A DNA stretch of 64,000 bases from Myxococcota bacterium (GCA_965247115.1 CBDFGR010000003.1:1248001-1312000); one strand, 5' to 3'; counted from the first letter of the stretch, positions 30 to 60,809 are shown. Made by a program: numbers and translations. The notes: generated by a model not told the origin, from the sequence alone.

Positions 30-48
30 TTTTTCAGCAGCCTGCTAG
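30..48. mobile_element. Possible terminal inverted-repeat end of an IS5/IS1182-like element or MITE extending off the left edge
   Basis: TTTTTCAGCAGCCTGCTAG ends in CTAG and resembles recalled IS1182/IS5-type ends; the rest would lie outside the window. Confidence 0.35.
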
Positions 49-276
49 ATGACCGAATGCGCCGAGAGTCCCACCTCAGTGACCAGAAGTTCCGACTTCG
101 GCCATACAAGTTCGGATCAAGGACCGTCCCCAAGTTCGGATTCCGAGGAGAACCGGCAGCCTCCTCCGGGGCCTGGCAACCCTGCAAGCGCCGCGTTTCG
201 CGGCGCGCGCAGCGAAGGCCCTTGGCCTGAGCGGAGGTGGGTGGCCGCGGACGCCCGCGGCCGGGTCCCACAAGAC
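45..276 (+). repeat. Repeat family A, long copy (A1)
   Basis: CTAGATGA...GAGAGTCCCACCTCA...AAGGACCGTCCCCAAGTT...GCAAG-hairpin-CGCGCAGCGAA-hairpin-GAGCGGAGGTGGGTGG-hairpin-GGGTCCCACAAGAC; closely matches the reverse complement of 26090..26349. Confidence 0.9.
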
Positions 277-945
277 TCACATGTCGAGCGCGGACTCCGG
301 GAAGACGCCGAGGTAGGCGAGGCAGGTGTGGCTGAGCTCGGTGGTGATCTGGCTCTTGGTCCAGACGCGGCCGGAGAGGTCTACCAGGTCGTCAAAGAGC
401 AGGCGGTACACGAGCGTGCTCGTGATCAGGCGGGCCACGAACTCGGCGGCAACGGCCGGCTCCGGATGGAGGAGCTCGCGGCGACGCGCGATCATGAGGG
501 CCACAAAACCGTCGTTGAACTGCCTCGCGTAGCGCTGAGCGCGCGCAGCGAAGCCGCGATCGGTCACCGTGCGCATCGTGAAGGCCTTGAGCAGCCCCAC
601 GCGCTCACTGAAGATCCGGACCCGGAACGCGATGATGTCTTCGATGATCTCCGACACGGAGGAATGGCTCCAGCGCTGCGGATCGAGCATCCCCTCCGCG
701 GTCGCCTCCGCCTCGGCCATGTAGCGCTCGTGCAGGGCATTTAGCAGCCCGTCCTTGTCGCGAAAGCGCGAGTAGAAGGCGCCGACCGACGAGTCGGCTC
801 GCTGGGCAATGTCCGCGACGCCGACATCCTCCCAGGCCTTCTCGGTCAGCAGGGCCTCGGCCGCATCCAGAAGCCGATCGAGGGTGGCGCGACTGCGCGC
901 CTGGTGAGTGGGACGGATCCATTCGAGCTGCGGTGCAACGGACAA
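277..945 (-). CDS. TetR/AcrR family transcriptional regulator
   Basis: N-terminal HTH 'RLLDAAEALLTEKAWEDVGVADIAQRADSSVGAFYSRFRDKDGLL'; start moved to TTG 945 behind a GGAG RBS (ORF track start 1002). Confidence 0.9.
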   Translation of the reverse strand: MSVAPQLEWIRPTHQARSRATLDRLLDAAEALLTEKAWEDVGVADIAQRADSSVGAFYSRFRDKDGLLNALHERYMAEAEATAEGMLDPQRWSHSSVSEIIEDIIAFRVRIFSERVGLLKAFTMRTVTDRGFAARAQRYARQFNDGFVALMIARRRELLHPEPAVAAEFVARLITSTLVYRLLFDDLVDLSGRVWTKSQITTELSHTCLAYLGVFPESALDM

Positions 946-961
946 TTCGATCTCCAAACCA

Positions 962-1009
962 GAACGGGAATTCTGATTCGGATCTTCGCAAACCCGACTC
1001 AAATGTCAA
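962..1009 (-). promoter_or_regulatory. Candidate sigma70 -35 box (TTGACA, 1004..1009) and imperfect palindromic operator upstream of the TetR gene
   Basis: Minus strand has TTGACA followed by GAAtcaGAATTCccgTTC; the -10 box is weak. Confidence 0.35.
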
Positions 1010-1050
1010 GCGAATTCAACCTCTTGGCCGACAAATTCTCTGCCTCGGAA

Positions 1051-1079
1051 GCCGTCGGAGGTCGGGAAACGTCCCCCGA
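1051..1079. repeat. Repeat family B copy
   Basis: GCCGTCGGAGGTCGGGAAACGTCCCCCG matches 11122..11146 and the reverse complement of 11209..11238 and 57130..57160. Confidence 0.75.
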
Positions 1080-1092
1080 CTCCTTGCCGTAC

Positions 1093-1195
1093 TGGCAACC
1101 CGCAAGCGCCGCGAGCGCGGCGCGCGCAGCGAAGGCCGTAGGCCTGAGCGAAGGTGGGTGGCGCGCGACCGCTCGCGCGCCGGGTCCCACAAGAC
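1093..1195 (+). repeat. Repeat family A, short copy (A2)
   Basis: TGGCAACCCGCAAG...CGCGCAGCGAAGGCCGTAGGCCTGAGCG...GGGTCCCACAAGAC. Confidence 0.9.
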
Positions 1196-1209
1196 CGCTC
1201 GCGCCGGAA

Positions 1210-2898
1210 TTAGCGCGGGGAAGGCAGGCGGATGTCTTCCACCAGCTGCTGGACCTCAGCGGGGGGCGGGGGGGTCAGGTAGCTCACGACCAGAGTCACG
1301 GCGAAGTTGAGGAGCATTCCCACCGTCCCGATCCCCTCCGGGCTGATTCCGAGCAACCAATCCGCGGCCCCGGCATCTGGCCGGGCAGTGAAGTACACGA
1401 TGTAGGCCCCGGTGAAGCCGATCCCCGAGAGCATGCCGGCGATCGCACCCTCCTTGGTCACCCGCTTGCTGAACACCCCGAGCACCAGAATCGGGAAGAA
1501 GCTCGATGCGGCCAGCCCGAAGGCGTAGGCGACGACCTGGGCCACGAAACCGGGTGGATTGATGCCGAAGTAGCCCGCCACGAGTACGGCTGCACCGGCC
1601 GCCACTCGGGCCAGCAGCAGCTCGCGCCGGTCACTGATGCCGGGAGTGAAGATGGACTTGAACAGGTCGTGCGAGACCGAAGAGGAGATCACGAGCAGGA
1701 GGCCCGCCGCCGTGGACAGGGCCGCGGCCAGACCTCCGGCGGCCACGAGGGCAACGACCCAGGCCGGAAGCTGCGCGATCTCCGGGTTCGCGAGCACCAT
1801 GATGTCACGGTCCACCTGAAGCTCGTTGGTGGCGGCGTCTGGTGTGTAGGTGATCACGCCGTCGCCATCCTTGTCTTCGAAGCGGATCAGCCCGGTTTTC
1901 TCCCAGTTCGAGAACCAGACCGGCGCCTCGCTATACGGCGTGCTGTGCAGGGTCTGGATCATGTTGGCCCGCGCAAACGTCGCGACGGCCGGCGCCGTGG
2001 TGTAGAGCAGGCCAATGAAGATGAGCGCCCACATCACGCTCCAACGAGCCGCGCGCGCACTCCTGACCGTGTAGAAGCGAATCAGCACGTGGGGCAAGCC
2101 GGCGGTCCCGGCCATGAGCGCGAGCGTAATCGCGAACACGTCGAGCATGCCCTTCTTTCCCGCAACGAAGGCTGCCGTGTACTCGGGAAAGCCCAGATCC
2201 CGGTGGATCTGATCGATCGTCTCGAGCAGGTAGATGCCCGCGTTGGGGCCGCTCGACACCGTCGAACCGAAGCCGATCTGCGGGATCGGGTTTCCCGTCA
2301 TGGCCATGGATATGGCGCCGGCGGGAATCAGGTAGGCAATGATCAGCACGGTGTACTGCGCGACCTGCGTGTACGTGATCCCGCGCATGCCGCCGAGCGT
2401 CGCGTACAGAAAGACGAGCGCCATCCCGATCACAACCCCGGTGTCGACGGGAACCTCGAGAAAGCGCGAGAAGACGATCCCAACACCACGCATCTGACCC
2501 GCGACGTACGTGAACGACACGAAGATCGCGCAGCCCACGGAGACAACGCGCGCGAACTGCGAGTAGTACCGGTCGCCGACGAACTCCGGCACCGTGTACT
2601 TGCCGTACTTGCGAAGGTAGGGCGCGAGTAGCAGGGCGAGCAGCACGTAGCCACCCGTCCAGCCCATGAGGTAGATCGTTCCGGTGTACCCCATGAAGGA
2701 GATGAGTCCCGCCATCGAGATAAACGAGGCGGCGCTCATCCAATCTGCGCCCGTCGCCATGCCGTTCGCCACAGCGGGGACGCCCTGTCCTGCCACGTAG
2801 AAGTCTGAGGTCGAGCGGACGCGGCTCCAGACTGCGATACCGATGTAGAGCGCGAAGCTGAGCCCGATGATCAGGTAGGTCCAGCTCTGGATCCCCAA
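1210..2898 (-). CDS. actP: Sodium:solute symporter, ActP-like cation/acetate symporter family
   Basis: 'DFYVAGQGVPAVANGMATGADWMSAASFISMAG' and 'GTAGLPHVLIRFYTV' SSS motifs; multiple TM helices. Confidence 0.85.
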   Translation of the reverse strand: MGIQSWTYLIIGLSFALYIGIAVWSRVRSTSDFYVAGQGVPAVANGMATGADWMSAASFISMAGLISFMGYTGTIYLMGWTGGYVLLALLLAPYLRKYGKYTVPEFVGDRYYSQFARVVSVGCAIFVSFTYVAGQMRGVGIVFSRFLEVPVDTGVVIGMALVFLYATLGGMRGITYTQVAQYTVLIIAYLIPAGAISMAMTGNPIPQIGFGSTVSSGPNAGIYLLETIDQIHRDLGFPEYTAAFVAGKKGMLDVFAITLALMAGTAGLPHVLIRFYTVRSARAARWSVMWALIFIGLLYTTAPAVATFARANMIQTLHSTPYSEAPVWFSNWEKTGLIRFEDKDGDGVITYTPDAATNELQVDRDIMVLANPEIAQLPAWVVALVAAGGLAAALSTAAGLLLVISSSVSHDLFKSIFTPGISDRRELLLARVAAGAAVLVAGYFGINPPGFVAQVVAYAFGLAASSFFPILVLGVFSKRVTKEGAIAGMLSGIGFTGAYIVYFTARPDAGAADWLLGISPEGIGTVGMLLNFAVTLVVSYLTPPPPAEVQQLVEDIRLPSPR

Positions 2899-2907
2899 GT
2901 GCCTACC

Positions 2908-3165
2908 TCAGTCGACGTCGTAGCGACGATCGATCCGGTCCATCCAGCGTGCATACACCAGGATGAGCAGGATAAAGATGTAGATCGAGCCCTGCTGTGC
3001 GAACCAGAAGCCGAGCGGGAAGCCGCCGAGTGAGAGGGTGTTCAGGGGCTCCACGAAGAAGATCCCCAGGCCAAAGGAAGACACGAACCAGATGCTGAGC
3101 AGGATTGCCAGGATCCTGACGTTCGCGCGCCAGTACCCACTGGGATCGCTTCGACGCTCTGCCAC
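2908..3165 (-). CDS. DUF4212-type small subunit of the solute:sodium symporter
   Basis: 'YWRANVR...GFPLGFWFAQQGSIYIF'; usual partner directly upstream of the SSS gene. Confidence 0.85.
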   Translation of the reverse strand: MAERRSDPSGYWRANVRILAILLSIWFVSSFGLGIFFVEPLNTLSLGGFPLGFWFAQQGSIYIFILLILVYARWMDRIDRRYDVD

Positions 3166-4358
3166 TACCTGAGTCCGAAGTCCCAGCCGTCTCCTATCTT
3201 GTAAGACTTCAGAATACGGCGCGCTGTCGTGGTGATGTGTACCTCGTCGGCCCCGTCGTAGATGCGCGCGAAACGCGCGTGGCGGTACATGCTCTCCAGC
3301 GGCGTGTCCTCCGAGACTCCCTTTGCTCCAAAGACCTGAATTGCGCGGTCGATCACGTTGTGCAGCATCTGCGCGCCGACCACCTTGATCATGCCGATCT
3401 CGACCCGGGCCTCGTCTCCCTGATCGATCTTGTGCGCCGCGTTCAACGTCAGCATGCGGCTGGCCTGGATCTCACACAGGCTATCGAACACGAACTTCTG
3501 GATTTGCTGATGCTCGCCCAGCGTCTTGCCGAAGGCGACGCGTTCGTTCGCCCTATCGCACATGAGGTCGTAGGCGCGCTGCGCCTGGCCGAGCCAGCGC
3601 ATGCAGTGGAAGATCCGGCCGGGTCCAAGGCGCTTCTGCGCGATCTTGAAGCCCGCTCCGCGCGGTCCGAGCAGATTTGCAAACGGCACGCGCACGTTGT
3701 CGTATTCGACCTCGCAGTGGCCGCCATTCATGCCCATGACCCGCACGTCGCGAATGATGTTGTAGCCGGGCGTGTCGGTCGGCACGATGATCATGCTGAA
3801 CGCGTCGTGGGCGGCAACGTCGGGCTCGGTACGCAGCATCACCGTGGTGTAGGCCGCGCGATCGGCCCCGCTCGTGAACCACTTGCGGCCGTTGATCACC
3901 CACTCGTCGCCCTCGAGCACCGCCGTGGTCTGGAGCTGCGTCGGGTCGGAGCTCGCAACGTCCGGCTCGGTCATTCCAAAGCTAGGGAAGACCTCGCCGT
4001 CCACCAGCCGTTTCAAGTACTTGTCGCGCCACTCCTCGGAGGCGTACAAGTGCAGCATGATCGAGTCCTGCAGGGAGTGCGTGCCCAGTGCGACGGTGGC
4101 GAGTCCGGAGCGGCCGACCACCTCGTTCACGTATACGTAGTCGAGGAACGGGAGGCCCTGGCCACCGATCTCCTTCGGGTGGCCCAGTGCCCAGAGCCCC
4201 GCCTCCTTGGCCTCCTGCATCAGTCGGCGCATGACCTTGTCCGACTCGGGGCTGCCGCGCTCCTCGAAGAGGTGCTCTACCGGGTATACACGCTGCTCGA
4301 TGAACTCCGTGACCTGCTTGCGAATGGGCAACATGTGCTCTGGAACCTGGAAGCTCAT
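3165..4358 (-). CDS. Acyl-CoA dehydrogenase
   Basis: 'FGMTEPDVASSD', 'INGRKWFTSG', 'RIYDGADEVH'. Confidence 0.95.
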   Translation of the reverse strand: MSFQVPEHMLPIRKQVTEFIEQRVYPVEHLFEERGSPESDKVMRRLMQEAKEAGLWALGHPKEIGGQGLPFLDYVYVNEVVGRSGLATVALGTHSLQDSIMLHLYASEEWRDKYLKRLVDGEVFPSFGMTEPDVASSDPTQLQTTAVLEGDEWVINGRKWFTSGADRAAYTTVMLRTEPDVAAHDAFSMIIVPTDTPGYNIIRDVRVMGMNGGHCEVEYDNVRVPFANLLGPRGAGFKIAQKRLGPGRIFHCMRWLGQAQRAYDLMCDRANERVAFGKTLGEHQQIQKFVFDSLCEIQASRMLTLNAAHKIDQGDEARVEIGMIKVVGAQMLHNVIDRAIQVFGAKGVSEDTPLESMYRHARFARIYDGADEVHITTTARRILKSYKIGDGWDFGLR

Positions 4359-4452
4359 GATTCACTCCTCGCTCTTGATGGAGCTGGCCCAGCCTAGACT
4401 CCACCACCCATCAGGGGCAAGCCGCAGCCTTTTTCGCTACCAAGCCCCCCGG

Positions 4453-6786
4453 ATGTGGCGGCCCGGGAACAAGCTAGTTCACCCCTTTAACCCTGAGCTC
4501 GGCACCGGACTGGTTGTGGAGGTGTCAGGGCGCTTCCTCAAGGTCTACTTCCCGGCGGTCGAGCGGGAGATCACCCTGGCCGGGGAGGGAGCGGGCCTCG
4601 AGCCGCTCATCCTTCCGCCAGGCGCGCGCGCCCGCATCCTCGAAAGCGGCGACGAGGTCGAAATCGCGGGGTGGGACGGGGATGCGTACACCACGAGTGA
4701 CGGTCGAGTCGTAGGGGATGCGGAGCTCTGGCCGGTCGACACCTCCAACTCACCGCTGGAGCGACTCGCCCAGCTGCGCCTGGACCGCCTGGGGGCGCTG
4801 CGAAACCGGCTCGAGGGCCTCCGGCTGATCCAGATACGCGAGGCCGGAGGGCTCGGGAGCCTGCTCGGGGGCAGGATCGAGCTCTTCCCGCACCAGCTTC
4901 ACACCGCGCTCGTGGCGCTTTCGCAGGACCCGGTGCGCTGGCTGCTCGCGGACGAGGTCGGGCTCGGCAAGACCGTGGTCGCCAGCTTGATCCTCTCCTC
5001 ACTTGTCCGAACCGGGCGCGCCCAGCGCGCGCTCGTGATCGCACCAGAGACGCTGACGGTGCAGTGGCTCGGCGAGCTGTACCGCAAGTTCCACCAGGTC
5101 TTCGTGCTGCTCGATCCCGAGCGAATCGAGAGCGTCACGCGGGACTACGAGGAGGACGCGAACGCGTTCGACGTTCACCCCTTCGGGGTGATCTCCGCGG
5201 ACCTTCTCGCCGCGGACCCCGAGCTCGCGGCTCAGGCCCACAAGGTGGATCTCGACCTCGTCGTGGTCGATGAGGCGCATCGCCTGGCGAACCCCGAGGT
5301 CGAGACCGTCGTAGCGCCGCTCATCAAGCGCGCCAAGCACGCCCTGCTACTGACGGCAACGCCGCTCGCGGCCGACCGCAGGGGCTTCTACCGGCTGCTC
5401 GCGCTCCTGCAGCCCGAGCACTTCGGCTCCTTCGAGGACTTCGAGCAGAGGCTCGCGTCCGGCGAGGCCGCCTTCTCCTGTACGAGCGCGGTGCGGCGGG
5501 AAGACCTGGGCAGCTGGCCCCCGCGCCGAGCTCTCGCCATCGACCTCCCCGCCACACGGAAGGAGCCGAAGAACGATCCGCGCGCGGGGTGGATCGCGGC
5601 CCAGACGCGGAGCTGGCTCGAGAAGGGCGAGAAAGTACTGGTCTTCATTCACGAGACGAAGACGCTCGAGAAGCTGAAGAAGTTCCTCGAGGCCGAGACT
5701 CGGACGCGCGTGTCCGTGTTCCACCAGGCCCTGAACACGGCCCAGCGCGACATCGAGGTCGCGCGCTTCCGCGAGTCGAACACGCCCCTGCTCCTCGTCT
5801 CCGAGGCGGGAACGGAAGGCCGGAATTTCCAGTTCTGCGATCGGATGATCCACTACGACCTGCCGACCGATCCCGTATTGCTCGAACAGCGCATCGGAAG
5901 GCTCGACCGCATTGGACGCAGCAAGGACGTGGAGATCGTCTACTTCCGCTGCGAGAGGGCGCGACCCGACCTGGCGCCCCTGTTCGAACGTCTGGACCTG
6001 TTCGAGCGGCCCTCCGCGGGCCTCGACGCCGCGCTGGCACCCGTCACCGCGGCGATCGAGGAGGCGGCCCTGCCGAGAAAGTCCCTGGACATCGACGCGC
6101 TCGTCGCGCGTGTGGAGGCGGAGCGCGAGGTCTCACTCGACGTTCTCCGCGTCTTCTACAGCGACGCGTACAACGTCTCGCAGGAAGAGAAGATCCTGGC
6201 GCTCGTACCCGAAGAGCTGGAGCAGCGCACCCGCCGCTTCTGCCTCGGCGCAGCAAACAACCTCGGCATGAAGATCGTCGATAAGGGCGGCGAGGCCCTC
6301 TACTACCTGGAGCTGGGCGCGTCCCTGACGGTCGAGTCCCTGCCGGGCGTTCCCGAGGGATCCCGCTGGCTCGGTACCTTCGACCGAGGGGAGGCGGTCG
6401 ACAAGGAGGAGCTCGACTTCTACGCGAGCGGTCATCCCCTGGTCGAGGGCCTCCTCCTCGAGCTGGAGGACGGTCCGCGAGGCCGAGCCGCACTGTGCGA
6501 GATTCCCGACGCGGAGGAGACGGGGGCCGGATTGCTCCTGGTGTTCCGCGAGGGGCCCGAATGGAGCGCAGTCGTAGTCGACGACTCGGGGAAGCTGCGG
6601 CCCGACGTGGCGACGAAGCTCATCGAGGGTCTGGGCGAGGCCAAGCCAGTCGATCCCCAGGAGTGGAACCTGGACGCCGGCTGGGCCGATGCCATCCGCG
6701 AGCTGGGCGAGCAAGCTCTCGGCAGCTTTGACGGCGCCGCACCCGATCTGGAGCTCGTGCTCTTCTTCCGCTGGATTCCGGCCTAG
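4453..6786 (+). CDS. rapA: SNF2-family helicase, RapA/HepA-like
   Basis: 'LLADEVGLGKT', 'DEAH', 'LLLTATP', 'SEAGTEGRNFQF', 'EQRIGRLDRIG'; N-terminal 'NPELGTGLV'; start moved to ATG 4453. Confidence 0.8.
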   Translation: MWRPGNKLVHPFNPELGTGLVVEVSGRFLKVYFPAVEREITLAGEGAGLEPLILPPGARARILESGDEVEIAGWDGDAYTTSDGRVVGDAELWPVDTSNSPLERLAQLRLDRLGALRNRLEGLRLIQIREAGGLGSLLGGRIELFPHQLHTALVALSQDPVRWLLADEVGLGKTVVASLILSSLVRTGRAQRALVIAPETLTVQWLGELYRKFHQVFVLLDPERIESVTRDYEEDANAFDVHPFGVISADLLAADPELAAQAHKVDLDLVVVDEAHRLANPEVETVVAPLIKRAKHALLLTATPLAADRRGFYRLLALLQPEHFGSFEDFEQRLASGEAAFSCTSAVRREDLGSWPPRRALAIDLPATRKEPKNDPRAGWIAAQTRSWLEKGEKVLVFIHETKTLEKLKKFLEAETRTRVSVFHQALNTAQRDIEVARFRESNTPLLLVSEAGTEGRNFQFCDRMIHYDLPTDPVLLEQRIGRLDRIGRSKDVEIVYFRCERARPDLAPLFERLDLFERPSAGLDAALAPVTAAIEEAALPRKSLDIDALVARVEAEREVSLDVLRVFYSDAYNVSQEEKILALVPEELEQRTRRFCLGAANNLGMKIVDKGGEALYYLELGASLTVESLPGVPEGSRWLGTFDRGEAVDKEELDFYASGHPLVEGLLLELEDGPRGRAALCEIPDAEETGAGLLLVFREGPEWSAVVVDDSGKLRPDVATKLIEGLGEAKPVDPQEWNLDAGWADAIRELGEQALGSFDGAAPDLELVLFFRWIPA

Positions 6787-7511: not shown

Positions 7512-7575
7512 GCCGAGAGGGTAGTGTCCCCGAGCCGGGAGTGTCGACACCTGGGCGGCGGCTGGGCGCGGAGCT

Positions 7576-9579: not shown

Positions 9580-9669
9580 CGTCGGTTCCTCCGTAGTCGG
9601 TGTGGTTGGCTCACCGTCACCGAAACGGAAGGTCCGCCCCTCGAGATGCCCCGGCTCGCGGGTAGGTGA

Positions 9670-9852
9670 CGCGCGACGGCAGGTCTCCTGGCTCGCGGGT
9701 CACGGCCTTCGCCCCACCTTCCCGGATCTCCAGTGGTGTGTTGGAGCGAGGGCTCGCCGCTTACAGTTGCGGGGACAGCCACGGCCTTGGCCGGCTTCTT
9801 ACCGGACGCACCGTGTTCCCTTTCAATCCCTAGCGGGAACCGTCAGGCCGAG
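9670..9852 (-). ncRNA. Cobalamin (AdoCbl) riboswitch
   Basis: Minus strand reads AAAGGGAACACGGTG...GCTGTCCCCGCAACTGTAA...CCACTGG...GGGAAGG...GAGCCAGGAGACCTGCC (B12 box), in the leader of the TonB receptor. Confidence 0.95.
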
Positions 9853-9876
9853 CCTATTCCGGCGGCCCTCCGCGCG

Positions 9877-11088: not shown

Positions 11089-11121
11089 GGCTCGAGATTA
11101 CCATGTGGGAATCAGCTGGGA

Positions 11122-11238
11122 GTCGGAGGTCGGGAACGTCCCCCGGGGGACTGTGGTAGCGGTATCCGAGGCGAAGAAGACCTCTGAGCACGCAGGGAGC
11201 GGAGTCCGCCGGGGGACGTTCCCGACCTTCGACGGCGT
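11122..11238. repeat. Repeat family B inverted pair (REPIN-like)
   Basis: GTCGGAGGTCGGGAACGTCCCCCGG (11122..11146) and CCGGGGGACGTTCCCGACCTTCGAC (from 11209) form a long inverted repeat. Confidence 0.8.
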
Positions 11239-11247
11239 GGGAAATCC

Positions 11248-15942: not shown

Positions 15943-15954
15943 AGAAGTTAAGAA

Positions 15955-16035
15955 GGGGACGGTCCTTAATCTTAACTTCTGGATCGAAGCTATGGGCCCG
16001 GACCGGAAGTTATAACTAAGGACCGTCCCCAAGTT
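15955..16035. repeat. Inverted pair of the GGGGACGGTCCTTA module (shared with family A) between convergent genes
   Basis: GGGGACGGTCCTTAATCTTAACTTC / GAAGTTATAACTAAGGACCGTCCCC, 25-nt arms with 3 mismatches. Confidence 0.85.
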
Positions 16036-24973: not shown

Positions 24974-25533
24974 CGCTCGCGCCCCGACCAGGCGGTCTCG
25001 CCCTCACCCGCCCGGTGGTTCGCTGTGCGCGCCATGACAAAGAGCAGGTCGGACAGACGATTCAGATAGCGGATCAGCAACGGAGCGACGGCTTCGCGAG
25101 CGGCCAGCGCGATCACCTGCCGTTCGGCACGCCGACAAACCGTTCGAGCCAGGTGCAGCGTGGCCGCAGCTCGCGTTCCGCCCGGCAGGATGAACTGACG
25201 CAGGGGCGTGAGCTCCGTCTCCATCTGGTCGATCCAGCGCTCCAGCTGCTCGACCTCCGCTTCGGCCACCCGGGGCAATCCCTTGCCCTTCCCCTCCAGC
25301 GCCTCGACATCTGGGATCGCGAGCTCTCCCCCCAGATCGAAGAGCGAGGATTGAATGGTCAACAGCCACCCACTCAGATCCTGCTCCTCGAGCTCCGCCC
25401 GCGCCGATCCCACCGCCGCGTTCAACTCGTCGACCTCACCGTAAGCGGCGACACGGGCCGAGTCCTTACGCACACGCTGGCCTCCGAAGAGCCCCGTCTC
25501 GCCACCGTCACCGGCCCGCGTGTAGACCTTCAC
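24970..25533 (-). CDS. pduO: PduO-type cob(I)alamin adenosyltransferase
   Basis: 'KVYTRAGDGGET', 'YGEVDELN', 'RTVCRRAER', 'YLNRLSDLLF'. Confidence 0.95.
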   Translation of the reverse strand: MKVYTRAGDGGETGLFGGQRVRKDSARVAAYGEVDELNAAVGSARAELEEQDLSGWLLTIQSSLFDLGGELAIPDVEALEGKGKGLPRVAEAEVEQLERWIDQMETELTPLRQFILPGGTRAAATLHLARTVCRRAERQVIALAAREAVAPLLIRYLNRLSDLLFVMARTANHRAGEGETAWSGRER

Positions 25534-25548
25534 GCCGCCGAGTATAGA

Positions 25549-25732
25549 CTTGTGGGACCCGGCCGCGGGCGTCCGCGGCCACCCACCTCCGCTCAGGCCC
25601 AGGGCCTTCGCTGCGCGCGCCGCGTCCGCAGCGCTTGCATTCTTGTGGGACCCGGCCGCGGGCGTCCGCGGCCACCCACTCTTCGTTCGGCTTCGTCTCG
25701 CTGCGCGTCCCGCCTACGGCGGGACTTGCGGG
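25549..25732 (-). repeat. Repeat family A, two tandem short copies (A3 25549..25639; A4 variant 25641..25732)
   Basis: Both begin CTTGTGGGACCCGGCCGCGGGCGTCCGCGGCCACCCAC; A4 carries a different hairpin, TCCCGCC-TAC-GGCGGGA. Confidence 0.9.
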
Positions 25733-25795
25733 CGCCACGACCCAAGTGGGGTCAGAGGGGTTGATGAGTCGGTGCCGATTTCCGATGGATAGGGG

Positions 25796-26089
25796 GTGGG
25801 TAGAGAATCGACCGCTCCGGTGGCTGGAACCTGCGACAGGTGCGGCTGCGCGCTCGGCTACCACGCCAGCTACCGGGCTGATGCCTGGTATTGCTGCGGC
25901 GCCTGCGCCGGGAGTGATCGCTGCGCGTGCGGCTGCAAGCCCGAATTCGCGCGCGAGGCTCCGACCGATGCCTACGTGCCGACGCGCAGGATGTTCGCCT
26001 CGCGGCACTCCGACGAACTGAAGACCAGACAGGACGACGAGCAGCGCTCCCGTGCCTTCCCCTTCGCAGATCGCAGGCGCGGCCGGTAG
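25796..26089 (+). CDS. Small Cys-rich protein, bacterial metallothionein-like
   Basis: 'CDRCGC...WYCCGACA...CACGC' resembles the SmtA/BmtA Cys pattern; start uncertain. Confidence 0.55.
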   Translation: MGRESTAPVAGTCDRCGCALGYHASYRADAWYCCGACAGSDRCACGCKPEFAREAPTDAYVPTRRMFASRHSDELKTRQDDEQRSRAFPFADRRRGR

Positions 26090-26349
26090 GTCTTGTGGGA
26101 CCCGGCCGCGGGCCTGTCTTGCGGGACCCTGCGCGCGAGCGGTCGCGCGCCACCCGCTCTCCGCTCAGGGCTTCGCCCTTCGCTGCGCGCACCGCGTTCG
26201 CGGCGCTTGCAGGTTGCCAAGCCCCGTAGGAGGTTGCCGGTGCTTCACGGAATCAGAACTTGGGGACGGTCCTTAATCCGAACTTGTTTGGCTGGAGTCG
26301 GAACTTCTAGTCATTGAGGTGGGACTCTCGGGCACATTCGTTCATCTAG
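26090..26349 (-). repeat. Repeat family A, long copy (A5)
   Basis: Reverse-complement match to 45..276, ending at CTAG (26346..26349); the GTCTTG(T/C)GGGACCC end is duplicated internally. Confidence 0.9.
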
Positions 26350-26377
26350 GCGTCGCCGCGGTCGTCTCACGCGGAAT

Positions 26378-26617
26378 AAGTTCGGATTAAGGACCGTCCC
26401 CAAGTTCGGTTTCTTGCTCCGAGAACAAGTTCGGATTAAGGACCGTCCCTAAGTTCAGTTCTGACGGCCGTCGCAGGTGCAGATTCCGTGGAGCACCGGC
26501 AACCTCCTACGGGGCTTGGCAACCTGCAAGCGCCGCGCTAGCGGCGCGCGCAGCGAAGGCCAAAGGCCTGAGCGGAGGTGGGTGGCCGCGGCCGCCCGCG
26601 GCCGGGTCCCACAAGAC
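26378..26617 (+). repeat. Repeat family A copy (A6) with doubled AAGTTCGGATTAAGGACCGTCCC module
   Basis: Ends GGGTCCCACAAGAC flush against the stop codon at 26618; forms an inverted pair with A5. Confidence 0.9.
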
Positions 26618-27631
26618 TCAAAGCCTGGTCAGCCCGGGTGCGGCCAGCTCGTAGCCGGATAGAAGCTCGAGGCGCGCGCGGAGTGCACCCGAGCCGATGA
26701 GCTCTCCCAGCGCCTGAATTCCTGGCAGCTCTGTGAAGGGCTCGCCGATCCAGAGCTCCACACGGTGTTCCTCGAGCGGCTCGAAGGTGAGCTCGTAGGC
26801 ACGGGCGCAGGGCTCGATTGTGAGCGCGCCGTCCACTTCGCCCAGCGATGCGCGCCTGGCGGCGTCGATGTGGCTCGCGGCGATCGGCCCGCGCACGCGC
26901 GCGCTCGATCCCACCCGGCGCAGGGCCCGCGAGAGTGCCTTCTGGGCAGAGGCGCCCGGATCGCGCTGGGCGAGGCGGATCGACGCGTCCACCAGCGCCT
27001 CGAGGCGCAGATCGCTCGACGCAGCCGACGCGATACCCACGCGCCAGCGCGCCAGCGCGTAGCCGGCCGTGTCCGACGGCCGGCTACGCAGGTCGCTGGA
27101 ACGTCCGTGAACCAGTGCCGCATGGCAGCGCCCCGCCGCGAGAGCCCGGCGGGCAGCAGCGGTGGTGGCGTGAACGGGGACGGCGCGGTGACCGCGGGTC
27201 GGTAGCAGATCCGCGATCAGACCGAGAGCCGGGTCGCAGCCCGCGAGCACCACTCCGCGCGTCTCGGAGCCGGGATGGATCTGGACGCGACCATCCCGCA
27301 ACACCGCGTCGGGTGCCCGAAATAGCTCGGCTCCCGCGCCGCGATCGGCGAGCGCCGCGTACACGAGACGATCGCCCACCCGACCGACGCGCAGGGCAGC
27401 CCCGTCGCGAGCCGGAGCAACCACGGGTACCGCCTCGACCGGGGCACTGGGGAAGAGCTCCTCCAGGGGAACATCGAGCGCCCGGGCCAGGGCTAGAGCG
27501 GTTGTCACACTGGGAACGTGACGTCCGCCCTCGATGGCGGAGACTTGGGCCCGACTCACTCCGGCCTCGCGCGCGAGCTCGGCCTGCGTCCAGCTCGTGG
27601 CGACGCGGCGTTCGCGCACGGCACTCGTCAT
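26618..27631 (-). CDS. XRE-HTH regulator fused to a PBP-like (molybdate-binding type) domain
   Basis: 'WTQAELAREAGVSRAQVSAIEGGRHVPS', 'LAGCDPALG', 'QRDPGASAQ'; divergent from modABC. Confidence 0.85.
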   Translation of the reverse strand: MTSAVRERRVATSWTQAELAREAGVSRAQVSAIEGGRHVPSVTTALALARALDVPLEELFPSAPVEAVPVVAPARDGAALRVGRVGDRLVYAALADRGAGAELFRAPDAVLRDGRVQIHPGSETRGVVLAGCDPALGLIADLLPTRGHRAVPVHATTAAARRALAAGRCHAALVHGRSSDLRSRPSDTAGYALARWRVGIASAASSDLRLEALVDASIRLAQRDPGASAQKALSRALRRVGSSARVRGPIAASHIDAARRASLGEVDGALTIEPCARAYELTFEPLEEHRVELWIGEPFTELPGIQALGELIGSGALRARLELLSGYELAAPGLTRL

Positions 27632-51122: not shown

Positions 51123-51141
51123 CCGCGTGGCTCGGCCCCTG

Positions 51142-52077: not shown

Positions 52078-52175
52078 CTCTCCTTGCTCGACGCTCGAAG
52101 TCTAGCAACCCCCGGGCCCCGAGGTGAACCACATTCCGGGCTAGCAGCGTAGAATCTGGGAAACGGAGGGAAGAA

Positions 52176-52949: not shown

Positions 52950-52951
52950 GG

Positions 52952-54493: not shown

Positions 54494-54501
54494 GCTTTCA
54501 C

Positions 54502-55377: not shown

Positions 55378-55420
55378 GTCGTCCTCCTCAGCGGGCAGTA
55401 TACCGCGTGCTACCATTCCG

Positions 55421-55906
55421 ATGATGTCGGACGAGCTCGTAGCAATTGCGCGCTATCACTCGTCGAACGAGGCCAACCTGGCGCGTGCTAGATTGCAATC
55501 CGCCGGAATCGACTCCACCCTGGCAGACGAGACGGGTGCCGAGGTCAGCGGGGAGCTCGAGAATCAGCTCCCGGTCCAGCTTGCGGTCATGCGTACGCAA
55601 GCGCGACAGGCGCTCGAGATTCTGCGCCAGGCCGCGGCGGAGCCCGCTCCGGAGCCCAAGTGGTCAGATCGCGTCGAGTCCGAGCGCTGCCCGGTCTGCG
55701 AGTCCTCCTTCACCCAGGTCCAGGATGCGTCGATGCTGGGGAGGATCCTTCGCGCGGTGCTCACGAGCCTGGTACCGCTGCCCGCCTCCGCTCTGGAGAG
55801 CAAGTCCCGCTCGTGTGGCGTCTGCGGACACCGCTGGAGGAGCTCCGCTCCTGAGGGCGAAGCGGCCCCTGACCAGCAAAGTCCACGCCCCGGCCCCTGG
55901 AGCTGA
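55421..55906 (+). CDS. DUF2007-like domain + C-terminal zinc ribbon protein
   Basis: 'EANLARARLQSAGIDSTLADE'; 'CPVCES...CGVCGHRW'. Confidence 0.65.
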   Translation: MMSDELVAIARYHSSNEANLARARLQSAGIDSTLADETGAEVSGELENQLPVQLAVMRTQARQALEILRQAAAEPAPEPKWSDRVESERCPVCESSFTQVQDASMLGRILRAVLTSLVPLPASALESKSRSCGVCGHRWRSSAPEGEAAPDQQSPRPGPWS

Positions 55907-55913
55907 TACGTCG

Positions 55914-56825
55914 GTGCGCGTTGCCTCTCTCCTGCCGAGCAGTACAGAGATCGCCTGTGCCGTGGGCGCGCGCAGCCAGCTCGTCGCTCGCTCGCACGAG
56001 TGCGACTTTCCCGCAGACGTGGCGAGCCTGCCCCCACTCACCTCTGCGCGCATCGACCCGGAGGTACCCAGCTTCGAGATCGACAGGGACGTGAGGGCTC
56101 TACTGGCGGAGGGACTTTCGATTTACAACGTGGACGCCGAGCGACTTCGCGAGCTCGCTCCAGAGGTGATCCTGACGCAGACTCTCTGCGAGGTCTGCGC
56201 GATCACCCCGAGAGACCTCGAGCAGGCGCTAGCGGATTGGACAGGCGTCGCGCCCCAGCTCGTCTCTCTCGAGCCCTTGCGACTCGAGGACGTATGGTCC
56301 GACATCGAGCGCGTGGGCACGGCTCTGGGCCTCGCGCGAGAGGGGCAGCAGCTCGCGGACGGGCTGCGGGCTCGGGTCGAGTCACTGGCCGAGCAAATCG
56401 CCGGGGTGGCCGAGCGGCCGAGCGTCGCGACACTGGAGTGGATCAATCCGCTCATGGCGGCCGGAAACTGGATGCCGGAGCTTGTCGAGCTCGCGGGAGG
56501 GCGGAACCTGTTCGGACTCGCAGGCGAGCACTCACCCTGGCTCGAGTGGGAGGCGCTTCAAAAGAGCGATCCGGAGCTGCTCCTGGTCCTGCCGTGCGGC
56601 TTCGGGCTCGAACGAACTCGTGCCGAGCTCGGCCCCCTGCTCGAGCAAACGGGCTTCGCGGAGCTCGACTGCGCCCGGAGCGGGCGGATCTACCTGCTCG
56701 AGGGCAACCAGTTCTTCAACAGGCCGGGACCGCGTCTGGCCGAGTCGCTGGAAATCCTTTGCGAGGTGCTGCACCCCCAAAGCTTCGACTTCGGCCACTC
56801 GGGCACCGGCTGGCAGTCCTTATAG
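55914..56825 (+). CDS. Cobalamin/iron-siderophore-type binding protein (BtuF-like, no evident signal peptide)
   Basis: 'RVASLLPSSTEI', 'RSHECDFP', 'LEWINPLMAAGNWMPELV', 'NRPGPRL'. Confidence 0.85.
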   Translation: MRVASLLPSSTEIACAVGARSQLVARSHECDFPADVASLPPLTSARIDPEVPSFEIDRDVRALLAEGLSIYNVDAERLRELAPEVILTQTLCEVCAITPRDLEQALADWTGVAPQLVSLEPLRLEDVWSDIERVGTALGLAREGQQLADGLRARVESLAEQIAGVAERPSVATLEWINPLMAAGNWMPELVELAGGRNLFGLAGEHSPWLEWEALQKSDPELLLVLPCGFGLERTRAELGPLLEQTGFAELDCARSGRIYLLEGNQFFNRPGPRLAESLEILCEVLHPQSFDFGHSGTGWQSL

Positions 56826-57124
56826 TGGGACCCGGCCCGTCTTGTGGGACCCAGCCCGCGGGCGGCCGCGGGCCACCCACCTCCGCTCAGGCCTACGGCC
56901 TTCGCTGCGCGCGCCGCGTTCCGCTGCGCTTGCAGGGAGGTGCAACGGCGGTCAGAACTGAAGACTAAGGACCGTCCCAAGTTAGATTCCGTGGAGAACC
57001 GGCAACCTCCTACGGGGCTCGGCAACCATGCAAGCGCCGCGGAACGCGGCGCGCGCAGCGAAGGGCAAAGCCCTGAGCAGAGGTGGGTGGCGCGCGACCG
57101 CTCGCGCGCCGGGTCCCACAAGAC
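56825..57124. repeat. Repeat family A inverted pair (A7 minus 56825..56937; A8 plus 56966..57124), REPIN-like
   Basis: Starts GTGGGACCC overlapping the TAG stop and ends GGGTCCCACAAGAC; central module TTCAGTTCTGAC shared with A6. Confidence 0.9.
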
Positions 57125-57129
57125 GCGCG

Positions 57130-57160
57130 CCGGGGGACGTTCCCACCCTCCGACGGCGTC
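57130..57160. repeat. Repeat family B copy
   Basis: CCGGGGGACGTTCCCACCCTCCGACGGCGT matches 11209..11238. Confidence 0.75.
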
Positions 57161-57194
57161 GGTCCGAGTCGCGCGGCGGTGGGCGCCGCCGCCT

Positions 57195-57974
57195 CTAGCT
57201 CGTGAAGTCGAGGATCGTCTTCGCGAGGGCCTCGGGGGCATCGAAGTCCACGCGGTGACCCGCGCCCTCAATGGAGCGGATCGTCGTCTCGGCGGAGATC
57301 CCGTCGGCAAAGCGCTTCGCGTAGCTGGCGGGGACGATGCGATCGTCGCTCCCCCACACCAGCAATGTGTCGGCTGTGATGCGGTGAAGCCGCTTGCGCA
57401 AACCCAGGTCGCCCGTCGGCCACAACAACCTGGCTGCAGCCTCCGCGGCGCGCACCTGCTCTACCTGCCACTCGATCTCCTCGACCCCTTTGGGACAGCG
57501 CAGCTCGCCCGCGAACTCCTCCGGCCTCGCGGAGTGGAGCGCAGGAATCTCGCTTACCCGTCGAGCCCAGACGTCGGCCACGGGGTCCGCCTCGTCAAAG
57601 AGTCCGAACGGAGCGACGAGGACTAGCGATCCGACGCTTGCACGCGAGAGCGCAGCCACCTCCGCGGCGAGGGCACCCCCCACTCCCAGTCCGATCAGAT
57701 CAGCGCCATCGAGCTCAGCAGCCTCGAGCAGATCCAGGATGGCGCTGACCCAGTCCGGCAGATCGTCCAGTTCACGGTGACCGTCCCCACCGGGGAAGCC
57801 CGGCAGCGAGGGCACGATCACCTGTCGACTTCCCGACAACCGCTCCAGAAAGGGCGACCAGCTCGGGAACCCGCCGAGCCCAGCGAGCACGCCGAGCTTG
57901 GGTCCGACGCCTTTTCGCCAGACGCGACACGCCGCACCGTTGACCTGTACCCTCCTCTCGGAGGGCTCGCTCAT
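57195..57974 (-). CDS. Alpha/beta hydrolase fold protein
   Basis: 'PSLPGFPG', elbow-like 'IGLGVGG' (no Ser), 'WGSDDRIVP', 'GAGHRV'. Confidence 0.8.
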   Translation of the reverse strand: MSEPSERRVQVNGAACRVWRKGVGPKLGVLAGLGGFPSWSPFLERLSGSRQVIVPSLPGFPGGDGHRELDDLPDWVSAILDLLEAAELDGADLIGLGVGGALAAEVAALSRASVGSLVLVAPFGLFDEADPVADVWARRVSEIPALHSARPEEFAGELRCPKGVEEIEWQVEQVRAAEAAARLLWPTGDLGLRKRLHRITADTLLVWGSDDRIVPASYAKRFADGISAETTIRSIEGAGHRVDFDAPEALAKTILDFTS

Positions 57975-59233
57975 CGAACGACCTCGCGCGGAACCGCCCG
58001 ATCCTCCCTCTGCATGGGTGTGGGCCACCACTTGTTCTCCCACTCGTCCTCGAACAGGTCGGTGAGCTGTGGAAAGACCCGCTTGGCGAACATCTCGGTG
58101 TTGTAGAGCGTGAGGTCCTTGCTCATGTTTCCATACTGGAGCAGCAGCATGAGCTGTCCCACGTTCATGGTGACGGCGACCTCGCGCAGCTGCTCCGCCA
58201 CCTCGTCGGGACTGCCGATGATCACGTACCCCTTGTCGACGATCTCCTCGAAGCCTGGAGCGCTGAACGCCTCCCGGTCCGTAGAGCGCTCGCTCGCCCG
58301 CGTCGCGGCCTGCACTACCTGCGACTGGATGCGCGAACGGATCGTCGCCTCGCTGGAGTAGCCAGGAGGCATCGCGTAGCGGGCGTCGACGTGGAGGCAG
58401 CGGTTGTAGAAATACTCCGCCGGCTCCCGGTACAGGTCCAGGGCTTCCTCACGCGACTCCGCCACACCGACGAACTGGAGGAAACCCGCGCGGAAGGGAT
58501 TCCGATCCTTGCCGAGCTCCTTCATCTCGTTCCAGAAGCCCTGCATCGTCGCCAGCCCGGACTGGTAGCCGAAGTAGGACAGGTAGGCGTAGACGTAGTC
58601 GAGCTCCGCGCACCAGTGCCAGGTTTCGACCGAGCCCCCGCCCGGAATCCAGATGGGCGGATGGGGCTTCTGCACCGGCCGTGGCCACGGGTTTACGTAG
58701 CGCAGCTTCGTGAAGCGTCCGTTGAAGACGAAGGGATCCGGGTCCTGCCAGGCCTTCATCACAAGATCGTGCGCCTCGTAGTAGCGCTCACGCAGCTGGC
58801 TCGGATTGGCGCCATAGGCGTAGCAGGTATCCATGGGGCTGCCCACGGGGAAGCCCGCGACGAGTCGGCCGCCGGAGATGACGTCGAGCATGGCGAACTC
58901 TTCCGCGACCCGTACCGGCGGGTTGTAGAGCGCGAGCGAGTTCCCCATGACGACGATCGCCGCATCGCGCGTGCGACGCGCAAGGCTGCTGGCGATCAGG
59001 TTCGGGGAGGGCATGAGCCCGTACGCGTTCTGGTGGTGCTCGTTCACGCAGACGCCGTCAAAGCCGATCTCGGCCGCGAACTCGAGCTCGTCCATGAAAT
59101 CGTTGTACATGCCGTGCGCCTTCTCGGGGTCGAACAGGCGCGAGTCGATGTCGACCCAGACCGACGGGTGGTCCTCCTTGAAGGAGTCCGGGAGCTCGGT
59201 GTAAGGCATGAGGTGAAACCAGAGAATCTTCAT
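57971..59233 (-). CDS. LLM-class flavin-dependent oxidoreductase (luciferase-like)
   Basis: 'GFDGVCVNEHH', 'PVRVAEEFAMLDVISGGRL', 'PRPVQKPHPPIW'. Confidence 0.92.
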   Translation of the reverse strand: MKILWFHLMPYTELPDSFKEDHPSVWVDIDSRLFDPEKAHGMYNDFMDELEFAAEIGFDGVCVNEHHQNAYGLMPSPNLIASSLARRTRDAAIVVMGNSLALYNPPVRVAEEFAMLDVISGGRLVAGFPVGSPMDTCYAYGANPSQLRERYYEAHDLVMKAWQDPDPFVFNGRFTKLRYVNPWPRPVQKPHPPIWIPGGGSVETWHWCAELDYVYAYLSYFGYQSGLATMQGFWNEMKELGKDRNPFRAGFLQFVGVAESREEALDLYREPAEYFYNRCLHVDARYAMPPGYSSEATIRSRIQSQVVQAATRASERSTDREAFSAPGFEEIVDKGYVIIGSPDEVAEQLREVAVTMNVGQLMLLLQYGNMSKDLTLYNTEMFAKRVFPQLTDLFEDEWENKWWPTPMQREDRAVPREVVR

Positions 59234-59254
59234 TTCGTCTTTTCCTTGCCGCGA

Positions 59255-60031
59255 CTACTTGCCCTTCCACTGGGGTGGACGCTTCTCTGCGAATGCCTTT
59301 GGACCTTCGACGAAGTCCTCGCTCTTCACCATCTCCGCGATGGCGGGGTAGCGGCCGGTCTTCATGGCCTCCTGCAGATCCGCGACGTCCTGACTGCGGC
59401 TCGCGGTCTGCTTGCTCGCGCGAATGGAGAGCGGGGAGCACTCCAGGATCTGCTCCGCCCAGGCCCGCGCGGACTTGAGCAGGTCGGCGTGGGGAACCAC
59501 GTCGGTCACGAAGCCCAGCTCTTTCCCCTCCTGCGCGCCGACCCGACGACCGGTCAGGATCATGCCCATCGCATGCTTCAGCGGGATCATGCGCGGCAAG
59601 CGCTGCAGCCCACCCGCGAGGGCGGCCAGACCGACACGCGGCTCCGGCAGGGCGAAGACCGCCTGCTCCGAGGCGATGATCAGATCGCAGGCGAGCGCGA
59701 TCTCGAAGCCCCCGCCCATCGCCACGCCGTTCACCGCAGCGATCACCGGCTTGACGAGGTCGAAGCGGGACGTGAGCCCGCCGAAGCCTGCGCGCTGCTG
59801 CTCGCCGCGCCCGCCGGACGCCTGGAACTTCAAGTCGTTGCCAGCGGAGAAAGCGCGATCCCCCTCTCCCGTAATGATGCCCACCCAGAGCTCCGGGTCG
59901 GCCGCAAAATCGTCCCAGACCTTTGCCAGCGCCTGGTTTGCGGGCGGGTGAAGGCTGTTCATCACTTCGGGGCGAGTGATGGTGACGGTCAACACCCGAC
60001 CGTCGCGCTCGCTCTTGCAGAATTCTGACAT
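59255..60031 (-). CDS. Enoyl-CoA hydratase/carnitinyl-CoA dehydratase-like
   Basis: 'AFSAGNDLK', 'NGVAMGGGFEIALACD', 'ALPEPRVG'. Confidence 0.92.
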   Translation of the reverse strand: MSEFCKSERDGRVLTVTITRPEVMNSLHPPANQALAKVWDDFAADPELWVGIITGEGDRAFSAGNDLKFQASGGRGEQQRAGFGGLTSRFDLVKPVIAAVNGVAMGGGFEIALACDLIIASEQAVFALPEPRVGLAALAGGLQRLPRMIPLKHAMGMILTGRRVGAQEGKELGFVTDVVPHADLLKSARAWAEQILECSPLSIRASKQTASRSQDVADLQEAMKTGRYPAIAEMVKSEDFVEGPKAFAEKRPPQWKGK

Positions 60032-60140
60032 TCCTCACTGACCTCCTGTTTTTCCTGGTCGATGATACCTCAGTAAGGGGATCCACCGCGCCAGGACCCC
60101 GACCTCGGCGTTGCGTCGGTCGAAGCGTTAGCCTGTCGTC

Positions 60141-60809
60141 GTGCACACGGGGGGTGCCTGGCTCGCGGTCGTTCTGCTCGGACTGCTCATGGGCTGCGAC
60201 CGCCCTCCGGAGACTCCGGAAGCCCGCATTCGCGCGTTGTTCTCGGAGGTGGAGCGCGCTTCGAGGGAGCGGGACCTCGGCACGCTCCGAGACATGATCT
60301 CCGAGACCTACTCGGACACGAGAGGTCGCAACCAGGAAGACGTACGCGCGATCCTGACGGCGTACTACCTGCGCCGCGGCTCGATTTACGTGCTCACACG
60401 CGTGCGCACCCTCGAGCTCCAGGAGAACGGACGCGCGCGCGCAAGCGTCCTCGCCGGCCTCGCCCGCGCCCCAACCCTCGACTTCGGCGACCTCCGCCGC
60501 CCCCAAGCCGACGTCTACGTTTTCGACCTGGACCTCGCGGAGGAGGAAGACACGCGCTGGCGCGTAACGGCGGCGAGCTGGCGCCAGGCCCTGTGGGACC
60601 CGGCCGCGGGCGGCCGCGGCCACCCACCTCCGCTCAGGCCCAGGGCCTTCGCTGCGCGCGCCGCGTTCGCGGCGCTTGCACGGTTGCCAAGCCTCGTAGG
60701 CAGTTGCCGGTTCTCAACGGAATCTGAACTTGGGGACGGTCCGGCGCCGGCGGGGTTAGCGCGATCTTTGCTTCCATGCGAAGCGCGAGAGGTCCACTCG
60801 GCCGCGTAG
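60141..60809 (+). CDS. Putative lipoprotein (NTF2-like), C-terminus apparently extended through repeat A9
   Basis: 'LLMGC' lipobox-like motif; after 'WRVTAASWRQA' the frame reads through repeat-derived sequence. Confidence 0.6.
   Translation: MHTGGAWLAVVLLGLLMGCDRPPETPEARIRALFSEVERASRERDLGTLRDMISETYSDTRGRNQEDVRAILTAYYLRRGSIYVLTRVRTLELQENGRARASVLAGLARAPTLDFGDLRRPQADVYVFDLDLAEEEDTRWRVTAASWRQALWDPAAGGRGHPPPLRPRAFAARAAFAALARLPSLVGSCRFSTESELGDGPAPAGLARSLLPCEAREVHSAA
60592..60742 (-). repeat. Repeat family A copy (A9)
   Basis: TGTGGGACCCGGCCGCGGGCGGCCGCGGCCACCCACC...AACTTGGGGACGGTCC. Confidence 0.9.

Follow-up and report, generated by a model that had tools for sequence, protein, structure and literature searches.

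A REP-like mosaic repeat at gene ends of a Myxococcota genome, probably a one-ended element handled as single-stranded DNA

In IS91/ISCR (insertion sequence/insertion sequence common region) one-ended transposition, as in Helitron capture, one end is fixed, the other is variable and adjacent DNA is captured. The characterised transposases of repetitive extragenic palindromes (REPs), the TnpA-REPs, also called REP-associated tyrosine transposases (RAYTs), cut between C and T or between C and A. The further systems considered here are taken from excerpts of the cited papers. TnpA-REP reads one strand and uses its loops and bulges (PMC8266576), and it can build tandem bacterial interspersed mosaic elements (BIMEs) (PMC3333891). 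Excision of the paired REPs, or REPINs, of strain SBW25 leaves the last ~6 bp behind (PMC3116915). A group of elements with terminal inverted repeats (TIRs), TIRYT/TIRtron, has also been described, including the TIR motif GGGG[AT][CG]A[CG] (PMC3733652, PMC6006769), and CGTC repeats are noted with no transposase in the excerpted text of PMC3733652. Here we analyse a repeat, core A, in a 64,000-nucleotide stretch of DNA from a Myxococcota bacterium (GCA_965247115.1 CBDFGR010000003.1:1248001-1312000), the whole of which is called the window. In our numbering the window is G000:C3:1248001-1312000, G000 being a 5.17-Mb genome of 66% GC.

Core A is probably a REP/BIME-like, one-ended single-stranded DNA (ssDNA) element that would be handled in trans by an HUH/Y1 enzyme, a reading that we hold with somewhat more confidence than doubt. 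It is built on the covarying stems, a one-strand DNA signature, a sharp 3' end, passengers on the 5' side, replaced copies and their footprints, and on the neighbouring bases that have gone missing at the 3' junction of two or more sites of the window.

The original prediction, made from the sequence alone, had listed nine copies of a structured unit of 100-260 nt, and all nine are present at the coordinates given, with the linkers, scaffold and stem swaps it described. The unit needs revision: the scaffold is shared, but the copies are mosaics and the nine have only a core of ~95 nt, core A, in common; those that are longer have unrelated modules (B, a spacer and C) added to it. The stem swaps hold overall, except that stem 2 of A4 is short and imperfect and that stem 1 of A3 and A7 contains T.G. 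Searches of G000 with nhmmer found 195 copies of core A with a profile made from its own copies and 193 with a profile from other genomes' copies, against no match in the reversed genome with either profile. The copies occupy 151 loci and are mainly extragenic. A regular expression parsed 155 of them, 151 distinct in sequence, and 7 parsed copies lie well inside open reading frames (ORFs). No Rfam family matches core A. At the gathering score the sole match in the whole window is a cobalamin riboswitch (9661-9859 on the - strand, 122 bits), with none on the repeats, and by E-value the interval 25500-26700 yields a single chance match (E 0.22). A description of core A was not found in the open-access literature, taken as main texts without supplements. 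The idea of a mobile repeat of REP type, non-autonomous and of greater complexity than classical REPs, is supported. Among the enzyme families tested, none flanks core A consistently.

Core A reads, in order, GCAAG, stem 1, GCGCAG-YGA, stem 2, GA-RCG, GYGGG, stem 3, a bulge and CCCR-CAAG. The window copies fold as ssDNA below dinucleotide shuffles (z -2.3 to -4.1, five of five folds). Both sides change in 12 of 19 named pairs among 30 hand-picked copies, 6 from the window and 24 from other genomes; cells with two-sided change number 83, a count inflated by kinship, whereas shuffling gives 29.0 +/- 3.8 (none of 500 shuffles reaches the observed value) and slid controls give 13 at most. Among the 151 distinct G000 copies the stems swap by whole pairs. 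GTGGG and CCCAC had been suggested to close the 3' domain, and the T of the first covaries with the A of the second in this long-range pairing (T-A 125, C-G 22, T.G 4 and C.A 0 in the distinct copies). The same result removes GTGG as a free palindrome head. A conserved unpaired GTAG/GTGG tetranucleotide 5' of a stem was not found; GTGG/GCGG covaries with CCAC/CCGC, and the copies of relatives show other heads, with C in place of the T of GTGG in many of them.

The structure is also asymmetric between strands. The loop of stem 2 is c[GNA]g in 94 of the 151 distinct G000 copies, as against 4 with the reversed c[TNC]g; the former is found in 18 of 27 copies of a same-genus genome, G002, and in 17 of 24 copies elsewhere, where none is reversed. 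The tandem G.A is closed on its outer side by C-G in 139 and by T-A in 10 of the distinct copies, the tandem G.A and the bulge persist, and stem 1 has G.T 12 times against A.C once. GCGNAGC mini-hairpins are very stable in DNA, their RNA counterpart far less so (PMC13037366). Judged from sequence, ssDNA rather than RNA is indicated by the c[GNA]g loops and by the tandem G.A pairs. Relative to a single gene that reads into a copy, the GNA strand was sense 35 times and antisense 33 times, unlike the expectation for an mRNA element. Of the proposed selection on ssDNA or RNA, the selected structure stands, and a noncoding RNA is disfavoured by the DNA-type loops and by this even balance of strands.

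Core A has a sharp 3' end that abuts stop codons or ribosome-binding sites. Of 140 final 3' ends, 72 fall at a convergent stop, where 7% (per base) or 24% (per gap) would be expected by chance, and 19 come before a start; a convergent stop falls within 10 nt of the end in 60 of 140. The abutted stops are TAG in 31 of 60 cases, compared with 39% genome-wide (p 0.045), an excess too weak for CTAG to be a strict target. The two flanks behave very differently. On the 5' side, 45 of 136 flanks are common to another locus, over 28-241 nt, and form five families (37, 2, 2, 2 and 2 loci) that include the passengers B and D described below; on the 3' side only 10 of 141 flanks share anything, and all of these are pieces of core A's own end of at most 38 nt. 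Repeated 3' ends are found in 33 of 140 copies.

Copies forming inverted pairs within 600 bp are arranged 3'-outward in 22 cases and inward in none; another count gave 21 and none. In a classical REPIN, such a pair and its spacer would be moved by a RAYT, and singles with partial 5' flanks would be decay products. Under this model the single orientation is expected, the outer strand begins with GTGGGA as in SBW25 group I (PMC3116915), and three pair linkers recur, at two loci each. However, doublets comprise 44 of 193 copies, against 61% in SBW25 (PMC3116915), and they are barely better conserved: they score slightly higher (46.0 versus 44.0 bits, p 0.025), but stem mismatches are no rarer in them (16/794, 2.0%) than in singles (27/1635, 1.7%). 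The partner arms and linkers differ within the 37-member passenger family, the T of GTGG is paired (and C in many relatives), and no RAYT is flanked by core A. The REPIN model therefore fits in part, and we regard it as unlikely to be the explanation of the family.

Orthologous sites in G002 show how the copies turn over. This genome has 27 core A loci, 25 of them syntenic with G000, which holds a copy at 14 of the 25. When the orthologous copy was ranked for similarity among the 155 parsed copies at 11 sites (2 of 13 were without a parsed copy), its ranks were 0, 7, 21, 48, 66, 90, 91, 93, 103, 106 and 141; it comes first at one site and has a median rank of 90, so that the majority were replaced or arrived independently. 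Several such sites lie in the window. The A4 type is common to both genomes, and A3 has been added at its 3' side with the loss of about 10 flanking bases. The two stop codons that bound the A5/A6 interval enclose a different variant in G002. G002 lacks A9; the G000 gene that it abuts is without its last 6 codons and stop and reads through the element, whereas the versions of this gene in two further genomes (G001 and G014) stop where that of G002 does. The 14-nt footprint outside A7 equals the end of the differing copy found at the G002 site. Across G000, 7 of 8 footprints of at least 13 nt come from another stem-3 variant than the adjoining copy, although three of these footprints share one sequence and may not be independent. 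In two sequencing runs, one core A copy is 10 bases shorter in stem 3. The runs, of which 13 contain at least half of the window's words, were compared as assembled contigs, which break at the repeats and showed no empty site, and the RNA run (X19) covers the window in scraps.

These observations bear on two further explanations. REP hairpins near stop codons have been reported to affect translation, and core A might be a gene-end element kept by the host as an mRNA stabiliser, terminator or translation brake, its copies homogenised through slippage and gene conversion, with no enzyme dedicated to it. Such a role would account for ends that hug stop codons, for the 14 of 25 sites common with G002 and for the existence of repeat-rich genomes without Y1, but slippage cannot yield footprints of another variant, and the GNA strand is sense about as often as antisense. 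Moreover, the strand transcribed from stop-abutting genes is the one that lacks the GNA loops and G.A pairs, genomes of the class range from 0 to 626 in copy number, in-frame copies occur in purD, in dnaE2 and in an AddA/RecB-like helicase gene, and A9 replaced a stop codon; we consider this explanation, too, unlikely. Very unlikely, in our opinion, is an RNA-mediated element resembling a short interspersed nuclear element, transcribed and inserted by target-primed reverse transcription. The fixed 3' end, nested 5' lengths and the 33 of 140 repeated 3' ends would suit it, but the triloops and sheared G.A pairs are of DNA type, the footprints derive from other variants, and the one reverse transcriptase match in G000 (RVT_1) is partial, in a region where core A is absent.

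For the one-ended ssDNA element that we favour, the following sequence of events can be proposed. An HUH/Y1 nuclease would copy core A in trans from one fixed end. The folded strand would be cut near its CAAG-bearing 3' end and extend back over a variable distance, carrying upstream DNA with it. Joining would take place preferentially into or beside an older copy or a gene end, often with the loss of a few bases, and selection against deletions into genes would pile the ends up at stop codons.

In two surveys, none of 30 and none of 137 Y1 loci had a full core A on both sides of a RAYT/Y1 gene. G000 does contain a divergent Y1 clade in multiple copies (clade 2), with 16 intact genes that have the motifs HxH ... 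YVLLN, DPASS and WLLxxGW and, upstream, a conserved promoter-like stretch and insertion sequence remnants; one of these genes lies just before the window (G000:C3:1243209-1243841). The clade was found in 52 of 225 genomes of the class and had no match among solved structures. When repeat-rich is taken as at least 20 matches and kin are counted as independent, clade 2 is present in 32 of 72 repeat-rich genomes versus 20 of 153 others, and the subclass-2.1 Y1 genes (clade 1) in 26 of 72 versus 21 of 153. In G017, a genome with 8 pattern matches, the 5' module lies 250-450 bp upstream of all four clade-2 genes, loci that may share descent and of which one has a degenerate copy of the module. The divergent clade-2 Y1 is the best candidate for the enzyme, as a lead and not an assignment.

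Other enzymes were also considered. There is no stand-alone GIY-YIG gene in G000, and repeat-rich relatives have a single long GIY-YIG frame of UvrC size or none, so that the Ssn-SRM system, with a small stand-alone GIY-YIG gene flanked by the repeat, was set aside; the GIY-YIG loci of the 41 relatives are also without a full core A. DUF559 has one weak match in G000, in a frame of 1543 aa, the four-helix-bundle IVP has none there, and PDDEXK_3 is present in 0 of 41 relatives. IS110 genes in G000 lie 0.5-137 kb from copies, the one at 0.5 kb being a fragment of 59 aa. The genes between close core A copies, among those listed, are ordinary metabolic genes. Core A as a substrate of another ssDNA nuclease (Ssn/GIY-YIG, IS91 Y2, PD-(D/E)xK or a further family) has some appeal, given that one-ended transposition is an IS91 trait and that IS91-type genes occur in 24 of 41 relatives, with one partial match in G000. 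Nevertheless, none of 30 IS91 loci carries core A and the sequence downstream of 25 IS91 genes is unlike it. Stem 1 of A4 does resemble the Neisseria NTS core cut by SsnA (PMC11893778). With the GIY-YIG and PDDEXK_3 results also against it, we consider this alternative quite improbable.

A number of observations weigh against a one-ended element served by a Y1 enzyme. No autonomous element was found, and none of the 16 clade-2 genes of G000 lies within 2.7 kb of a core A. The 5' motif is upstream of 4 of 50 clade-2 loci (3 of them from G017) and downstream of 2 of 50, while at 30 clade-1 loci it is upstream of none and downstream of one, with 1 of 60 in controls. Neither Y1 clade was detected, at the cut-offs used, in 26 of 72 repeat-rich genomes, including G010, which has 426 matches and 100% completeness. 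The gene calls are from our own simple model, which missed at least one small gene. A T follows the end of core A in 26 of 48 stop-abutting copies, as expected from stop codons, but away from stops a C-to-T junction is not apparent (T in 6 of 35). Some whole pairs have evidently been copied together, which fits REPINs, and no strand bias was seen against rough proxies of replication direction. In some other genomes the polarity of the stem-3 loops is reversed (c[TTC]g, c[TTT]g). Finally, covariation in a palindrome can come from template switching without selection; since hairpins can correct themselves in this way, the asymmetries that have been kept weigh more than the covariation.

The full strict pattern of core A was found in 7 of 401 genomes of the phylum, all of the same family, and BLAST detects core A in 22 of 41 relatives, in which tandem arrays are common; there was no match in the plasmids or viral contigs searched. 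The 5' G.A hairpin alone is far more widespread, being present in 128 of 225 genomes of the class, with as many as 626 per genome and no more than two matches in controls. It is possible, though on balance doubtful, that these represent a class-wide group of one-ended, self-targeting ssDNA mini-elements. DNA mini-hairpins and sheared G.A pairs, in place of a GTAG head, would serve for their recognition; copying would start at a fixed 3' end, and the elements could bring upstream DNA, the ends of other elements included, to new sites and overwrite older copies at gene ends. If so, half of a Myxococcota class would have, in as many as 600 copies per genome, a miniature prokaryotic equivalent of ISCR/Helitron capture, operating via an uncharacterised Y1 clade or an unknown nuclease.

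Among the passengers, module B is a 29-nt repeat that flanks, in inverted orientation, a RAYT ORF at G000:C3:2177114-2177944. A search for a RAYT flanked by copies had been suggested; it is module B, not the three-stem core, that flanks the one found. This gene bears NHYH and YVHLNP, which correspond to the subclass-2.1 TnpA-Y1 motifs NH[YF/V]H and Y[IV]HLNP (PMC6006769). It scores 76.2 bits on NF047646, below the cut-off of 80, and its frame shifts after about residue 156. At the site of this TIRYT gene, a bridging contig of run X8 has 927 different letters where G000 has 947, which makes a divergent allele likely in close strains. The module B motif (GGGGACGG / GGGGACGT) is one mismatch from the published consensus GGGGWSAS, and inverted repeats of the GGGGAC type surround 19 of 30 subclass-2.1 genes in the class when the motif is applied strictly. 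G000 has 95 copies of module B in 63 loci, among them 28 inverted pairs of which one encloses the RAYT; 38 of the 63 loci are within 400 bp of core A, and 15 pairs have a conserved spacer of ~105 nt, each lying 17-68 bp from a core A. Module B is the TIR of a TIRtron, an addition to the TIRtrons already known, separate from core A and likely picked up by it as cargo. A stand-alone mini-TIRtron, a B pair with a 42-nt spacer, was also observed at about 15953-16035 of the window, outside the earlier list.

The first copy of the window had been thought to start at position 45, but positions 1-45 are the end of an IS5 element, which was inserted at the CTAG of a B spacer (45-48) and splits the A1 composite. 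Only 3 of its 28 genomic copies are in or at these repeats, and IS5 is regarded as a bystander. The loci G000:C2:1720742 and C3:1248048 hold the halves of one B spacer, each beside its own IS5 copy, a sign of either a rearrangement through IS5 or an assembly mis-join. A further repeat, family D, is an inverted pair of ~130 bp with 47 half-sites in G000 and none in the reversed control; it has GCAAG and GAGCGGAG in common with core A and GGGGACGTT with TIRYT ends, and in the window it is seen at 1049-1092, about 11120-11240 and about 57132-57160.

Table 1. Coordinates of the repeat copies and associated features in the window
Feature	Position	Strand	Remark
IS5-family right end and TAG duplication; bystander	1..48	.	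28 near-identical copies genome-wide
Half of ~105-nt mini-TIRtron spacer, passenger of A1	49..107	+	
Module B, TIR of subclass-2.1 RAYT (TIRYT) element	108..136	+	Same sequence inverted around RAYT ORF
Module C linker; two GGCAACC repeats enclose a small hairpin	137..183	+	5' flank family, 37 loci
Core A1; 3' end touches TGA (277-279) of TetR-type gene on -	184..276	+	
Half of repeat family D, directly 5' of A2	1049..1092	-	
Core A2; 14 nt from stop of sodium/solute symporter gene on -	1102..1195	+	
Core A3, tandem to A4; 15 nt before start of cob(I)yrinic acid adenosyltransferase; not in G002	25549..25639	-	
Core A4, stem 1 TCCCGCC/GGCGGGA; same type at G002 site	25641..25730	-	
3'-end footprint of older copy, other stem-3 variant; touches TAG (26087-26089) of Cys-rich ORF	26090..26115	-	
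Core A5	26116..26211	-	
Module C of A5	26212..26256	-	
Mini-TIRtron: B 26257-26285, conserved spacer, inverted B 26378-26406	26257..26406	.	
Second B copy (26427-26455), linker and module C of A6	26427..26524	+	
Core A6; touches TGA (26618-26620) of helix-turn-helix/periplasmic-binding gene on -	26526..26617	+	
14-nt footprint overlapping TAG stop of ABC substrate-binding gene	56825..56838	-	Equals end of G002 copy
Core A7, 3'-outward partner of A8	56839..56934	-	A7/A8 linker recurs at G000:C2:433292-433599
Partial B and module C of A8	56966..57029	+	
Core A8; then family D half at about 57132-57160	57030..57124	+	
Core A9; 3' end inside + strand gene starting at 60141	60591..60679	-	
Module C and partial B of A9	60680..60742	-	

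Some further observations concern the surroundings of the copies. Open frames contain three copies in purD, one in dnaE2 (also in G002) and one in the AddA/RecB-like helicase gene, and in G000 one copy joins an LpxI frame to a dehydrogenase frame; the in-frame loci are G000:C2:1437771, C3:1786422, C3:1794425 and C2:1554043-1554308. Long stretches free of core A, rich in duplicated phage-like DNA, extend beyond 1.79 Mb of C2 and beyond 2.39 Mb of C3 in G000. The Cys-rich ORF whose stop is touched by the footprint of A5 (25820-26089, + strand, 89 aa; CxxCxC ... YCCxxC ... CxCxC) looks metallothionein-like by eye and had no Pfam match; its region is similar in G002.

The repeat bears on how REP-like sequences spread, come to sit at stops and persist without a flanking transposase. 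Core A leaves readable traces for each step, namely the fixed end, the passengers, the replaced copies and a deleted stop codon, and it couples a defined putative ssDNA substrate with a named candidate enzyme, the multi-copy Y1 clade. Because it alters gene ends and is found in frame within essential genes, it matters for the annotation of these genomes.

Like IS91/ISCR and Helitrons, core A has one fixed end, a variable other end and captured adjacent DNA, but it has no likeness to the IS91 ends of these genomes and is not found beside their 30 IS91 loci. The TIRtrons or TIRYT elements, as excerpted from PMC3733652 and PMC6006769, have GGGGAC-type TIRs, inverted flanks around the RAYT and many gene-less dimers; this likeness holds for the passenger B only, whose motif is one base off GGGGWSAS; core A does not flank these genes. 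The Ssn motifs (NTS/SRM, CGTC-type) with the GIY-YIG enzyme SsnA (PMC11893778, in excerpt) are, similarly to core A, oriented hairpins read as ssDNA, yet they have another flanking consensus, and the repeat-rich genomes searched are without a stand-alone GIY-YIG gene. SBW25 REPINs, as far as the excerpt of PMC3116915 describes them, resemble core A in their pairs of one orientation, outermost GTGGGA, terminal footprints and insertion into or beside copies; they differ in the share of pairs (61% versus 23% for core A, where pairs are not clearly better conserved), and single core A copies carry passengers. The REP/BIME and TnpA-REP systems of E. coli and Pseudomonas, according to the excerpts of PMC3333891 and PMC8266576, also present hundreds of extragenic hairpins, often after stops, with mosaics, tandem arrays, one-strand features (loops and a bulge) and some genomes without a cognate gene. 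Core A works like a REP, but lacks the unpaired GTAG head and the flanked RAYT that define REPs, as well as the doublet share of REPINs. Beyond this absence of a GTAG head, of a flanked REPtron and of an evident C-to-T rule away from stops, it is set apart from REP/BIME by its three stacked domains of ~95 nt in place of one 20-40-nt hairpin, and by its one-sided capture of upstream DNA.

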